In this document: piece after piece, positions 6,293 through 56,417 of the stretch | How positions within the stretch are numbered: the first letter of the stretch is position 1 | How the letters are laid out: every line of letters starts with the position of its first letter | Assembly: GCA_009928955.1 (NCBI GenBank) | Contig: SABN01000002.1 | Location: 8,427-72,426, forward strand | Direction of reading: 5' to 3' | DNA length: 64,000 nucleotides | Source of the DNA: Opitutia bacterium | Lineage (GTDB): Bacteria > Verrucomicrobiota > Kiritimatiellia > CAIQIC01 > Lenti-01 | Program-made: the position numbers and the translations under genes | Notes under the pieces: generated by a model | The model's input: only the letters and a program-made list of their open reading frames with translations | Database searches by the model: none | Told to the model about the DNA's origin: nothing

Positions 6293-6311
6293 TTTTCCAC
6301 GCTGTGGAAAA
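6293..6311. repeat. intergenic palindrome TTTTCCAC-GCT-GTGGAAAA (family member)
   Basis: Read directly. 8-bp arms with a 3-nt spacer, between the convergent trmD and DoxX gene ends. Flanked by two further hairpins: TCCCCGC/GCGGGGA at 6251-6266 and AACCGG-TTCG-CCGGTT at 6312-6327. Confidence 0.8.
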
Positions 6312-22240: not shown

Positions 22241-22275
22241 TATTTTTCCGCCGCGCTTTGCTAGAACCCACGTCT

Positions 22276-24057
22276 ATGCCCGGACCGGCCCCCATTCGAG
22301 TGCTCCCCGACGCGGTGATCAACCAGATCGCCGCGGGCGAGGTCGTGGAGCGCCCAGCGTCCGTCCTGAAGGAGCTCGTCGAGAATTCCATCGATGCCGG
22401 GGCCGCGCGCATCGAGGTGGAGGTGGTGGATGGCGGCCGGCGCCTGGTGCGCGTCCGCGACGACGGCGCCGGGATGGACCGCGACAACGCCTTGCTGTCC
22501 ATCGAGCGCCATGCGACCAGCAAGCTGCGCGAACTGAAGGATCTCGACACCATCGCCACGATGGGGTTCCGGGGCGAAGCGCTCGCGGCCATCGCGTCCG
22601 TCTCGCAGTTTTCGCTCACGACCAACCAGGCCGGGTCGGCGGCGGGCACCGAGATCCTGATCTTCGGCGGCAAGATCCAGGACGTGCGCGACGCGGGCGC
22701 TCCCCGCGGCACGGACATCGCCATCCGCAATCTCTTCTTCAACGTGCCCGCCCGCCGCAAGTTCCTGCGGTCCGCCCCGACGGAGTTCACGCACATCCGG
22801 CAGGCCTTCCTGCTGGAGGCGCTGGCGAACATCGGCATCGAATTCACGTTGCGGGCGGACGACGAAGACGTGTATCGCCTGCCCGCCGCCGAAAGCCTGC
22901 TGGACCGCATCCGCGACCTGTATGGCGCGGAAGTGGCCGGCCATTTGCGGCCCATCCGTTTCGGCAACGGGGTGGTGGAGATTGGCGGCCATGCCGGCAT
23001 TCCGCCGTACAGCCGCATGGACCGAGAACTGCAGGTCGTCTTCATCAATGGCCGCCCGTCGGGATCGCCCGTCGTCAATTTCGCCATCCAGAGCGCCTAT
23101 CGCGACGTGCTGCAGGGCGGCCGCTATGCGCCGCTCTTCCTGCACGTGAATCTGCCGCCCGACTTGGTGGATGTGAACGTCCATCCCGCCAAGAAGGAGG
23201 TCCGGTTCCGCCGGCCCACCGAAGTGCGCGATGTCATCATCGAAGCCATCCGGCTGGCGGTCGCCGGCCCCGAACTGCCCCGCGGCAAGCGCGACGACTT
23301 TCCGCGCGAATCCTCCCGCCCGCATGTGTATCTGCCGACCTCCGCCCCGATGGCCGCCCCTGCGCCGGCCGATGCGGCGGCGCCTTCCGCGCCGGCGCCC
23401 GTGGCCATGACGCAGCCCAATCTGGACTGGACGCCGCCGCCCGTGCCGGTCGCGGGCGAGACCGCCGTCCGCGCCGCGCCGTGGGCGGAATACCGCCTCA
23501 TGGGGCGCGTCGGCGGGCTGTATGTCGTCTTGGAAACCGCCGAGGGGCTCGTGCTGATGGATTCCCGCTCCGCGCATGAGCGCGTCATCTACGAGCGGCT
23601 GCTCGGCGCGCTGGAGAAGGGGAGCGTGCCGTCGCAGGGGCTGTTGCCGCCCGCGACCGTGCCGGTCACCCCCGCGCAGGGGAACGCCCTGCGCCAGCAT
23701 CTCGATCTGCTCAAGCGCATGGGATTCGGCGTGGCCGAGTTCGGCGCGGACACCTTCCTCGTGGACGCCTTGCCGGTCTGGGTGGCGGACGTGGCCGCCG
23801 GCACGCTCCTGTCCGATCTCGCCGACGGCCTGATGCAGGGCGGCAAGACGGCGGCCCAGGATTGGGCGCAGCCGCTGATCGCCTCCATCGCCGGGCGGCA
23901 GGCCGTCGGCCTCCAGCGCGAGCTGACCGACGCCGAGCTCAACGCCCTCATCCGCGACCTGGCCCGCACCGAGATGCCCTACACCTCGCCGCGCGGCAAG
24001 CCCACCGTCATTTTGCTCAGCCATCGGGAGCTGAACCGCAAATTCGGACGGGAGTGA
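22276..24057 (+). CDS. mutL: DNA mismatch repair protein MutL
   Basis: IRVLPDAVINQIAAGEVVERPASVLKELVENSIDAGA is a GHKL ATPase N-terminus. The C-terminal dimerisation domain ends ...CPHGRP-like SPRGKPTVI. Confidence 0.95.
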   Translation: MPGPAPIRVLPDAVINQIAAGEVVERPASVLKELVENSIDAGAARIEVEVVDGGRRLVRVRDDGAGMDRDNALLSIERHATSKLRELKDLDTIATMGFRGEALAAIASVSQFSLTTNQAGSAAGTEILIFGGKIQDVRDAGAPRGTDIAIRNLFFNVPARRKFLRSAPTEFTHIRQAFLLEALANIGIEFTLRADDEDVYRLPAAESLLDRIRDLYGAEVAGHLRPIRFGNGVVEIGGHAGIPPYSRMDRELQVVFINGRPSGSPVVNFAIQSAYRDVLQGGRYAPLFLHVNLPPDLVDVNVHPAKKEVRFRRPTEVRDVIIEAIRLAVAGPELPRGKRDDFPRESSRPHVYLPTSAPMAAPAPADAAAPSAPAPVAMTQPNLDWTPPPVPVAGETAVRAAPWAEYRLMGRVGGLYVVLETAEGLVLMDSRSAHERVIYERLLGALEKGSVPSQGLLPPATVPVTPAQGNALRQHLDLLKRMGFGVAEFGADTFLVDALPVWVADVAAGTLLSDLADGLMQGGKTAAQDWAQPLIASIAGRQAVGLQRELTDAELNALIRDLARTEMPYTSPRGKPTVILLSHRELNRKFGRE

Positions 24058-25286
24058 TGGACAAGACCCCGAAATCGATGCGCCTCCACATCGGCCTGTT
24101 CGGCCGGACCAACGCGGGGAAATCCACGTTCTTGAATCTGGTGGCGGGGCAGGACGTGGCCATCGTTTCGCCCCAGGCGGGCACCACGACCGATCCGGTG
24201 GAGAAGACGATGGAACTGCTGCCCGTCGGACCGGTGGTCTTCACGGACACCGGCGGGGTGGACGACGCCTCCGCGCTCGGCGACCAGCGGCGCGGAAAAA
24301 TGATGGCCGCGCTGCGCCGCATGGACGTGGCCGTGCTGATGGTGGAGCCCGACGTCTGGACGGAGCACGAGGACCGGCTTCTTCGCGAGATGAAGTCCGG
24401 CGCCCGTCCCTTCTTGGTCGTGGTGGGCAAGACGGATCTGCGGACGCCTTCGCCGGCCTTCCTCGCGCGGCTGAAAGCGGTGTCGCCGCACGTGATCGAA
24501 TCGACGGCGGTCCCCGGACAGCGGGACCGCGTGGTGAACGCCTTCAAGGCCGCGCTCGGGCAGCTGATGCCGGAAGGTTCGCTGCAGACGCCGGATTTCT
24601 TCGGCGGGGCGGTGCCGCCCGGCGGGATGGCGCTGCTGATCATTCCGGTGGACAAGGAGGCGCCCAAGGGGCGCCTGATCCTGCCCCAGGCGCAGGCGGT
24701 CCGCGCCGCGCTCGACGGCGGCGCCGTCGCGGTGGTGGCGCGGGAAACCGAATATCTCGCGGCCCTGGCCCGGCTGTCCGCTCCGCCGGATCTGGTGGTC
24801 TGCGATTCGCAGGTCGTCGACCGCATGGTGGCCGAGACGCCTCCGGACGTGCGTTGCACGACCTTTTCAATCCTGCTCGCGCGGCTGAAGGGCGACCTGC
24901 CCGCGATGGTGAAGGCCGCGCGGGGAATCGACGAGCTGCGGGACGGCGACCGGATCCTGATCGGCGAGGCTTGTTCGCATCATGCGAACGAGGACGACAT
25001 CGGCCGCCAGAAGATCCCGCGCTGGCTGAGGGAAAAGACCGGCAAGGCGTTGCAGATCGACGTGAGGGCCGGGCGCGATTGGCCGGCGGATCTGGAGCAG
25101 TACCAGCTCGTGATCCACTGCGGCGCCTGCATGCTGAACCGCCGCGAGATGCTCCACCGCCTGCAGACCGCTGCGGCGCGCGGCGTGCCCATGACCAACT
25201 ACGGCGTCGCCATCTCCCACCTGAAGGGCGTCCTGCCGCGCGTCCTCGAACCCTTCCCCGACGCGGCCGCCGCGCTGGACCCCTGA
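24057..25286 (+). CDS. hydF: [FeFe]-hydrogenase H-cluster maturation GTPase HydF
   Basis: GTPase motifs (GRTNAGKSTFLN, DTGG). APKGRLILPQ segment. C-terminal cluster motif CSHH...HCGACMLNRREM...MTNYGV. Colinear with Thermotoga HydF as I recall it. The ATG overlaps the mutL stop (TGATG). Confidence 0.9.
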   Translation: MDKTPKSMRLHIGLFGRTNAGKSTFLNLVAGQDVAIVSPQAGTTTDPVEKTMELLPVGPVVFTDTGGVDDASALGDQRRGKMMAALRRMDVAVLMVEPDVWTEHEDRLLREMKSGARPFLVVVGKTDLRTPSPAFLARLKAVSPHVIESTAVPGQRDRVVNAFKAALGQLMPEGSLQTPDFFGGAVPPGGMALLIIPVDKEAPKGRLILPQAQAVRAALDGGAVAVVARETEYLAALARLSAPPDLVVCDSQVVDRMVAETPPDVRCTTFSILLARLKGDLPAMVKAARGIDELRDGDRILIGEACSHHANEDDIGRQKIPRWLREKTGKALQIDVRAGRDWPADLEQYQLVIHCGACMLNRREMLHRLQTAAARGVPMTNYGVAISHLKGVLPRVLEPFPDAAAALDP

Positions 25287-25318
25287 GGATTCCATGCCGG
25301 ACGTCGCCGATCGCGCGG

Positions 25319-25442
25319 TTTTCCACGGTGTGGAAAAAAGTTTTCCACGGTGTGGAAAAAACGGGCCGGTTTTTCCACGCAATGGAAAACTTTTTTCGGT
25401 TTTTTCCACGCAATGGAAAAAAAGTTTCCACACTGTGGAAAA
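25319..25442. repeat. array of five TTTTCCAC-N3-(G/A)TGGAAAA palindromes
   Basis: Copies at 25319-25337, 25341-25359, 25371-25389, 25402-25420 and 25425-25442, separated by A/T-rich spacers. Read directly from the sequence. Confidence 0.9.
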
Positions 25443-25485
25443 CTTCCGCCGCCGGCTCCTGCGGCCGCCAACCGCAGGGGGGGCG

Positions 25486-26349
25486 GTGTGGCTCGCGCTG
25501 GCCGCGATGGGCCTGGGACTGGTCGCGGCTGCCGGGGCGGCCGCGCCGACGGGTGCGGAGCCCACGCTCGAGCTCGACAAGAAAGTTTATGTCCTGGGCG
25601 AAGCCATCCGGTTCTGGATCGGAGTGGCTCCGAAGGGGAACGAGCCGATTCCGGAGATCGAGGGGAACAGCTGTTTGCTGCATATCACGCGGCCGGATGG
25701 AACCCGCTCGGATTCCGCCGTGAGCTGGCCGTCGGATGGCGCGCTCGATCTGGGATGGACCGGCGGACAGGAGCTGCGGGGGGAGGAGATCCAGCTCGGG
25801 ACCTATTCGCTGTCCTTCGAATTCGCGGGGAAGCGGACGCCGCCGGTCGACCTGGTCGTGCGCGCGCTGCCCGCGCTTCGCGACGTTGCGGCGGAGTTCG
25901 TATTCGGCGCGCGAGGGGCGGTGGGGGCCGATGACTCGATTCCGGTCGTGCTGCGCGTGGCGAACCGCACGCCGCAGCTCCTCCGATTCCCCGTGTTTGG
26001 GGCGATCGGCACGACGATCTCCCTGCGGATCTACCGGACGGATCCGCCCCGGGGGGAGAGCTTGTTCTATCCGGACGAGTGGCTGCCGGACCCGAAAGCG
26101 GTCGCCTGCCCCGATGCAACGGGGTGGCGTCCCTTGGCCCGCACGCCGTTCATCGCCCTGCGGCCGGGGGAGACCTACGATGTGGAGTTGTCGATCCGTC
26201 CCGCCGATCGGTTCTGGGGGCCGGGGGAGTACGAGGTGGAGTTCTCCACCACGATTCCGCTGCTGCTGGGCGAGCCGGACGGGGAGTTCGCCGATGTCTG
26301 TCCGATCCGCCTGCGCGTGAGCGCGAAAGAGGACTTCACGATGCCGTGA
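25486..26349 (+). CDS. secreted hypothetical protein (Ig-like beta-sandwich domains)
   Basis: Track ORF 25294..26349 trimmed, because its first ~60 codons are just the palindrome array. Signal-like VWLALAAMGLGLVAAAGAAAP. The start is uncertain (GTG 25486 or ATG 25507). Confidence 0.6.
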   Translation: MWLALAAMGLGLVAAAGAAAPTGAEPTLELDKKVYVLGEAIRFWIGVAPKGNEPIPEIEGNSCLLHITRPDGTRSDSAVSWPSDGALDLGWTGGQELRGEEIQLGTYSLSFEFAGKRTPPVDLVVRALPALRDVAAEFVFGARGAVGADDSIPVVLRVANRTPQLLRFPVFGAIGTTISLRIYRTDPPRGESLFYPDEWLPDPKAVACPDATGWRPLARTPFIALRPGETYDVELSIRPADRFWGPGEYEVEFSTTIPLLLGEPDGEFADVCPIRLRVSAKEDFTMP

Positions 26350-33177: not shown

Positions 33178-33234
33178 GGGCGGCATCGGCCCCTGCGCGG
33201 GATTTCCCGCCGTGTGGAAAATCTGGGATTTGTC

Positions 33235-56398: not shown

Positions 56399-56417
56399 TT
56401 TTCCACGGCGTGGAAAA
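56399..56417. repeat. intergenic palindrome TTTTCCAC-GGC-GTGGAAAA (family member)
   Basis: Read directly. The stem extends to 9 bp (G56398/C56418). It lies between convergent gene ends. Confidence 0.8.

Follow-up and report, generated by a model that had tools for sequence, protein, structure and literature searches.

The window analysed here, the whole stretch of 64,000 nucleotides, corresponds to positions 8427-72426 of contig C93 in the host MAG (G000; 3.42 Mb, 66% GC, 345 contigs). On its plus strand lies hydF (24054-25286), the gene for the [FeFe]-hydrogenase maturase GTPase, whose identity, proposed from sequence alone, is confirmed by its Pfam domains (HydF_tetramer, 4.8e-46; HydF_dimer, 3.5e-34; MMR_HSR1, 2.9e-18). 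The stop of mutL (22258-24057) overlaps the start of hydF at window positions 24054-24057, and the pair looks translationally coupled. An array of palindromic units begins 33 nt past the hydF stop codon and ends 44 nt ahead of the probable GTG start of the next gene (25486-26349, plus strand), which is positioned behind a G-rich stretch. The product of this downstream gene has a signal-peptide-like N-terminus, and a Pfam search assigned it to no family. Naive ORF calling translates the array, as had been noted: the longest ORF (25294-26349) runs through it as FHGVEK/FPRCGK peptides, and ORF callers thereby prolong the downstream gene.

The array comprises five 19-bp units within positions 25319-25442. 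A five-unit palindrome array at this place had been described in an earlier, sequence-only reading of the window, and the observation holds; of the start-to-start steps given there, the first three (22, 30 and 31 nt) are correct, and the last is 22 nt rather than 23. Two types of unit can be distinguished. Type P, found in units 1, 2 and 5, is symmetric (CCAC...GTGG; TTTTCCAC-N3-GTGGAAAA) and has no assigned strand, whereas type Q, found in units 3 and 4, is asymmetric and lies on the plus strand (TTTTCCAC-GCA-ATGGAAAA in both). Unit 1 (25319-25337, TTTTCCACGGTGTGGAAAA) and unit 2 (25341-25359), which starts 22 nt past it, form with their AAG linker a 41-nt palindrome, here termed the P22P module. 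An 11-nt, G+C-rich junction linker, AACGGGCCGGT (25360-25370, plus strand), joins this module to a second one, Q31Q22P, in which unit 3 (25371-25389) and unit 4 (25402-25420), with starts 31 nt apart, are separated by the 12-nt linker CTTTTTTCGGTT (25390-25401, plus strand) and are followed by the closing unit 5 (25424-25442, GTTTCCACACTGTGGAAAA). The whole mosaic, P22P-30-Q31Q22P, spans 124 bp (25319-25442, plus strand), and a single strand of it is predicted to fold as one long hairpin.

With up to two mismatches allowed, the window holds 8 unit matches, compared with 0.01 in shuffled sequence. Beyond the array there are single P units at 6293-6311 and 56399-56417, both in gaps between convergent genes and both already recognised in the sequence-only reading, as well as a degenerate unit with two mismatches (33203-33221) in the gap ahead of a gene starting at 33214; none of the three has an assigned strand. 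The further claim that the palindrome never occurs inside genes is true of the window and fails genome-wide, where some copies sit in frame within real genes.

A dispersed mosaic family in the host genome

In G000 there are 344 units (at most two mismatches) at 127 loci, and the array after hydF is one of these. In this genome-wide count, which had been proposed as a check, almost all of the loci are intergenic. Given the stereotyped mosaics, which occur in both orientations and mostly between genes, the REP-like dispersed family offered as one candidate in the sequence-only reading was right in kind. The loci are built of the same two modules, P22P and Q31Q22P (two Q units 31 nt apart, then a P unit), connected through the 11-nt G+C-rich linker. 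The full architecture is present at 6 loci in the orientation of the window and at 5 in reverse, alongside many partial forms, and the other copies of the whole element are 80-93% identical to the window copy.

Conservation is not confined to the units. The linkers are conserved too, with a consensus of CTTTTTCGCGAT between Q units (53 Q31Q pairs) and AACGGCCCGTT at junctions, and the 3-nt linker of P22P reads AAG 21 times and CTT 12 times. The arms of the units do not vary in sequence, unlike their loops and flanks. Of 178 perfect-arm units, 177 have a loop of 3 nt, and the loop follows the pattern purine, C/G, pyrimidine (R-S-Y). The building block can thus be written as a 19-bp unit, T4-core4-N3-core4'-A4, repeated at intervals of 22 or 31 nt across conserved linkers. 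Twenty-six loci reside within 300 nt of contig ends, as is expected where repeats break assemblies.

An additional G+C-rich module of 107 nt, with an internal inverted repeat of its own, is present in four copies that are 84-100% identical (C260:19839-19945, C268:22116-22222, C46:4980-5085 and C249:30396-30496); the three whose flanks were examined (those on C260, C268 and C46) lie between palindrome units. A second AT-rich repeat of G000 is made up of the heptamer ATATCCA(A), repeated in runs that form inverted arrays (C144:2059-2163, C269:7876-8167 and C176:9799-10108). These heptamer arrays occupy intergenic sites that hold palindrome arrays in other species, and in the congener G016 (L260) inverted heptamer runs bracket a palindrome array of the ACGT type described below.

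Gene context was assigned with a GC3-based gene caller together with a codon-phase test on the flanks. The caller first gave 17 "internal" loci, most of which, by frame analysis, separate two genes in different frames. Approximately 6 of the 127 loci remain inside genes and about 121 outside, compared with a genome that is 84% coding. The flanks are tandem in 52 cases, convergent in 20 and divergent in 7, with convergent contexts exceeding divergent ones (p = 0.007-0.017). The asymmetric module shows no bias in orientation relative to genes (15 same, 18 opposite).

At least four arrays are in frame within real genes, namely those for a DppB-like permease, an NTP-transferase and TilS (tilS), and a YfhO-like gene. 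Pfam domains flank the array on both sides in the permease, the NTP-transferase and TilS; in the YfhO-like gene a weak Pfam match, below the cut-off, lies on one side of the array only. Another array is located directly upstream of alaS. A 198-nt composite (P, the 107-nt module, P30P22P) is in frame in two unrelated genes, whose copies of the 107-nt module match at 92.5% identity; this shows that sequence has been copied from one locus to another.

The stability of the predicted structure and the position of the arrays raise the question of a role in RNA, in which the array hairpin would end, stabilise or process the hydF transcript, as REP elements can. A 161-nt transcript containing the array has a predicted fold of -80.9 kcal/mol (z = -8.45), the array DNA one of -54.1 kcal/mol, and the preference of arrays for gene 3' ends, convergent over divergent, is in keeping with such a role. 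However, the sense strand contains no intrinsic terminator (a G+C-rich hairpin with a U tract), and the two antisense matches are no more than shuffled sequences yield. The lack of bias of the asymmetric module with respect to gene direction and the in-frame copies inside genes also speak against this explanation, as do arms that are invariant in sequence and show no compensatory changes. Rfam 15 returned no match at the gathering score, the 21-23 bits obtained being at chance level against cut-offs of 60-63. A promoter pattern was likewise absent from the sense strand in our scan. A primary role in RNA is therefore improbable on these grounds.

Subfamilies across the genus

When the GTDB species genomes were scanned for the P22P doublet, matches occurred only in uncultured MAGs of Verrucomicrobiota, Kiritimatiellia or "Lentisphaerae"; the titles that name a source refer to anaerobic digesters and wastewater systems. 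Viral contigs contained no P22P doublet, and full-text literature searches found no published description of the repeat family. Among 40 relatives scanned, the CCAC palindrome is present in all 19 congeners (6-163 perfect copies per genome) and in two of the five other genera of the family, and is absent from the other families of the order. All of the genomes compared are fragmented MAGs, and G000 mixes two strains.

A sister family with a different core, TTTACGT-N3-ACGTAAA, is found at 0-187 copies among congeners, in a pattern reciprocal to that of the CCAC units: the CCAC-poor congeners G002, G012, G016, G017 and G018 carry 111-187 copies of it. The ACGT family and the Q module have in common the 31-nt period, the C/G centre and a similar linker, which in G012 is aactttgcgcggat and resembles the Q-Q consensus. 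Copies of a hybrid unit, TTTCCAC-N3-ACGTAAA, number 108 in G009, 70 in G010 and 13-14 in G008 and G012. This unit is missing from seven of the nine CCAC-type congeners without ACGT units, G000 included (G005 and G019 have one each), and from all genomes outside the genus. In G009 and G010 the hybrid occupies the Q slots of mosaics (e.g., H31H31P22P and h22P31h31A31h), where it is mixed with P and A units. Whereas a P unit can form a predicted 8-bp stem, the hybrid is self-complementary at its T4/A4 ends only, although h22H doublets are perfect 41-nt palindromes. Since this unit has been amplified all the same, a hairpin in each unit does not appear to be obligatory.

The P (CCAC/GTGG), Q (CCAC/ATGG), H (CCAC/ACGT) and A (ACGT/ACGT) subfamilies have each reached tens or hundreds of copies and, judged from their sequences, look like successive bursts. 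An operator array for a local dimeric regulator, another candidate of the sequence-only reading, is unlikely in view of the approximately 127 loci, the succession of subfamilies and the amplification of a non-self-complementary unit to 70-108 copies.

Comparison of orthologous sites indicates how these subfamilies replace one another. The in-frame arrays of the permease and NTP-transferase genes are genus-wide, being present in every congener examined. In CCAC-type species their units are perfect and vary in number and type (PPP, PPPP, QQP, six units, or P plus the 107-nt module plus PPP), whereas in ACGT-type species they are partly or fully decayed, a decay common to G002, G012 and G017. Where both flanks of an array in another species co-map in G000, 29 of 36 (81%) fall at occupied G000 sites, and the number of units at these shared sites usually differs from that in G000. 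Similarly, flanks are collinear for six ACGT arrays of G012, three of which match CCAC arrays of G000. One such pair (G012 C3:39972 and G000 C242:8805) can be aligned unit by unit, with cores swapped, linkers kept and two units half-converted. At the site 3' of hydF, the five CCAC units of G000 correspond to three ACGT units in G002 and to a CCAT-type variant in G004, and G008, G010 and G012 have no units. These sequence comparisons show long-lived array sites whose content has been rewritten repeatedly, with an old subfamily that decays after a new one takes over.

Many other ACGT arrays of G012 lie at gene-order breakpoints, with left and right flanks that map inside different G000 contigs (L237, L241, L244, L247, L248, L251, L252 and L255). 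That such cases merely reflect contig ends caused by arrays was considered and rejected, as most are synteny breaks.

The DnaA-box likeness of the half sites

Each half site of the array had been described as matching, or lying one mismatch from, the relaxed DnaA-box consensus TTWTNCACA. This is so for eight of the ten, three of which are perfect (TTTTCCACA) and five of which have one mismatch (four TTTTCCACG, one GTTTCCACA); the remaining two (TTTTCCATT) have two mismatches. One of these forms had been linked to cyanobacteria, correctly: TTTTCCACA is the cyanobacterial DnaA box (PMC4674748).

In the host MAG, dnaA-dnaN is found on two other contigs (C320:28117-29496 and C14:5764-6774), and the two DnaA copies are 91% identical, which indicates that the MAG mixes two related strains (contamination estimate, 7.9%). 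The boxes of the dnaA-dnaN spacer comprise conserved TGTGGA(C/A)AA together with GATGTCCACACTGTCCACAGG, and the CCAC half site could therefore plausibly serve as a DnaA box in this lineage. At C320:29497-29800 (L009:2524-2827; orthologues L203-L210) lies what is likely to be the oriC of the genus, with three TGTGGA(C/A)AA boxes and GATGTCCACACTGTCCACAGGACATACTGATA; this spacer is conserved in all nine genomes aligned. Apart from the repeats, the dnaA-dnaN spacer is the only place in the genome with a cluster of DnaA boxes.

An oriC-like or DnaA-titrating element was also among the candidates of the sequence-only reading. On this view the array would be a cluster of DnaA boxes that titrates or reactivates DnaA, as datA or DARS do, or a secondary origin. 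In addition to the eight half sites within one mismatch of the consensus, the use of TGTGGAAAA (equivalent to TTTTCCACA) as a box in the dnaA-dnaN spacers of the second strain (C14) and of several congeners could be taken to favour this idea, and with about 650 TTTTCCAC sites in the genome, incidental binding and titration of DnaA in CCAC-type species are conceivable. Like the boxes of oriC, datA and DARS1/2 clusters, the half site TTTTCCAC(A/G) fits the relaxed consensus. Unlike those clusters, the element occurs at some 127 loci rather than one, and its half sites are arranged as head-to-head dyads one base apart. When mapped against dnaA/dnaN and GC skew, as had been suggested, the array is near neither: the genes are elsewhere and there is no skew extreme at 25.3 kb. 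Moreover, G is nearly as frequent as A at position 9 of the half site.

ACGT-type congeners have lost or replaced their CCAC units with a core that is not a DnaA box, yet the boxes of their dnaA-dnaN spacers are the same, and at the same positions, as in CCAC-type species. DnaA specificity has thus stayed unchanged while the dispersed repeat changed, which argues that DnaA is not what maintains the arrays and that they belong to a self-copying family rather than to an origin or DnaA element. A function in titrating DnaA or as a secondary origin is accordingly very improbable.

Proposed propagation of the arrays and likeness to known repeats

Our preferred reading, to which we give a probability of roughly 55%, is that the array after hydF is one local representative of a mosaic repeat that propagates itself and is restricted to this lineage, BIME-like in general and RPE-like where it is in frame. 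Reciprocal subfamilies, amplified hybrids, an old family in decay and origin boxes that stay the same all favour such a copying, REP/BIME-like element. Templated DNA copying between arrays would spread the copies and keep them uniform, conceivably by ectopic gene conversion or by insertion targeted at existing units, and the number of units may rise and fall through recombination or slippage in steps of the 22/31-nt period. All of this would depend on a putative factor with sequence specificity. The resemblance of the CCAC half site to a DnaA box would then be incidental, and the local effect of the array probably amounts to little beyond a very stable hairpin in any hydF read-through transcript.

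With REP and BIME elements of Enterobacteriaceae and Pseudomonas, the family shares short palindromic units in hundreds of copies that are extragenic and for the most part close to the 3' ends of genes, mosaics whose linkers are fixed and whose modules occur in either orientation, species-specific sequence variants, and long persistence at orthologous sites. Unlike in REP/BIME, the arms here are T4/A4 around a 4-nt core with a strict 3-nt loop, a non-self-complementary unit has been amplified, and some copies are in frame in genes. Also in contrast to REP/BIME and REPIN/RAYT systems, there is no GTAG-type tag and no unit-flanked cognate RAYT: the units start with a T tract, and neither GTAG nor a similar 5' tetranucleotide is conserved in the flanks. 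G000 has ten matches to PF01797 (Y1 transposase), three of which encode RAYT-like proteins of about 330 aa with the Y1 domain at the N-terminus and a C-terminal helix-turn-helix (C188:37404-38405, C214:18990-19952 and C273:7208-8194). Units are near one of the ten genes, on one side only. The 23 Y1 loci scanned in five congeners are not consistently flanked by units, and none has any of the ACGT type. A RAYT link was thus rejected for the genome and the five congeners, both unit types having been scanned.

The Y1 proteins score 59-65 bits against the NF047646 cut-off of 80. Members of the Y1-HTH family (approximately 330-350 aa) are multi-copy throughout the order, where a genome may have as many as 13, and they show no link to the palindromes. 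They are missing from five repeat-rich congeners, and this failure to co-occur with the repeats speaks against the family as a reader of the arms. The idea that the C-terminal HTH resembles DnaA domain IV and reads the arms was also rejected, searches with Pfam, BLASTP against the host DnaA and PDB sequences being null.

Other hallmarks of mobility were sought. The 23 full-length copies examined show no target-site duplication at their ends, and no clean empty sites were seen, the intergenic DNA being too diverged for sharp boundaries. A test for a MITE found no longer element bounded by units, only the 107-nt module. With neither flanking by RAYT genes nor target-site duplication, the defining features of REP/RAYT elements are lacking. 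By analogy, the element appears to work like BIME and RPE repeats and yet falls outside the REP/RAYT class.

The likeness to Rickettsia palindromic elements (RPE) lies in palindromic repeats of about 100-150 bp that are lineage-restricted and have no known transposase, and in their in-frame insertion into protein-coding genes, where they are tolerated in surface loops; this is an analogy only, with no sequence relationship expected. In contrast to RPE, most copies here are intergenic, and each is an array of 19-bp units rather than one long palindrome.

An iterated, lineage-specific word with dialects, found in and between genes and possibly subject to molecular drive, also recalls HIP1 of cyanobacteria and the uptake sequences USS/DUS. 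The units could accordingly be uptake-signal-like words kept by biased uptake and recombination. The lineage-specific dialects, the decay of the old dialect and the positions conserved across species would suit this scenario, and ComEC is found in all congeners; indeed, G000 contains two ComEC paralogues of approximately 820 and 1130 aa (C314:30939-31796 and C103:7008-7973), both conserved across the genus. However, ComEC is nearly universal, and its presence says little because it is present everywhere. Unlike HIP1 or USS/DUS, the units have a much lower density, about one locus per 27 kb, are clustered in phased arrays of mosaic architecture with conserved linkers, and have no linked methylase or uptake receptor. 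Uptake words are hardly probable, about as much so as a DnaA cluster.

Several observations weigh against the self-propagating mosaic repeat as the best explanation. No mobilising enzyme was found, the Y1 genes neither flanking nor co-occurring with units. The 81% site conservation and the invariant arms amid diverging flanks would be compatible, too, with protein-binding sites kept by purifying selection, and the strict N3 R-S-Y loop and the 22/31-nt spacing suit a DNA-binding reader; 22 and 31 nt are about two and three helical turns. Finally, core replacement at the same site rests on few loci, three of six collinear sites.

These points lead to the alternative that the arrays serve one or more abundant, sequence-specific DNA-binding proteins as docking sites. 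Such proteins would read head-to-head 8-9-bp half sites on one helix face, the subfamily switch reflecting duplication and divergence of the reader and DNA copying being secondary. Arms that do not vary amid variable loops and flanks, the strict loop, in which a purine and a pyrimidine face each other across a central C/G, and the phased spacing are all compatible with such a reader, as are sites that persist across species, even within genes, and an old family that decays wherever the new one prevails. The CCAC and ACGT half sites moreover mix freely per unit and per array, as expected of independently read half sites. Nevertheless, each half site requires three changes, so that point mutation cannot give hundreds of new sites and a copying process is needed anyway. 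The conservation of linkers alongside units also speaks against docking, as does the near uniformity of the loops in Q, H and A units, which looks like young bursts from master copies, and our analysis found no candidate reader. We consider docking sites as the primary explanation doubtful.

The features of copying and of reading may also be combined in a tentative model, which we hold to be possible even though the odds are against it. The half sites would be genome-wide, rewritable words: a putative reader or copier would recognise the 8-9-bp words TTTTCCAC, TTTTCCAT and TTTTACGT head to head, phased at 22/31 nt, at about a hundred fixed positions. A change in its specificity would lead to overwriting in place, half site by half site, with the hybrids as intermediates and unconverted copies left to decay. 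If this were true, it would represent a new system of host-element co-evolution or chromosome marking without a transposase of known type, and CCAC-type chromosomes would in addition be loaded with some 650 sites identical to a DnaA box.

For annotation, the array should be called neither an origin nor a DnaA regulon site nor coding sequence, and the repeats break assemblies. The genus offers a natural experiment, in which the mosaic occurs in close species in its CCAC, hybrid or ACGT form, at partly shared sites, and in which the in-frame copies record maintenance and decay. How REP-like repeats without an obvious transposase are copied and kept uniform is a long-standing question, and in this genus it becomes testable by comparative genomics and pull-downs.
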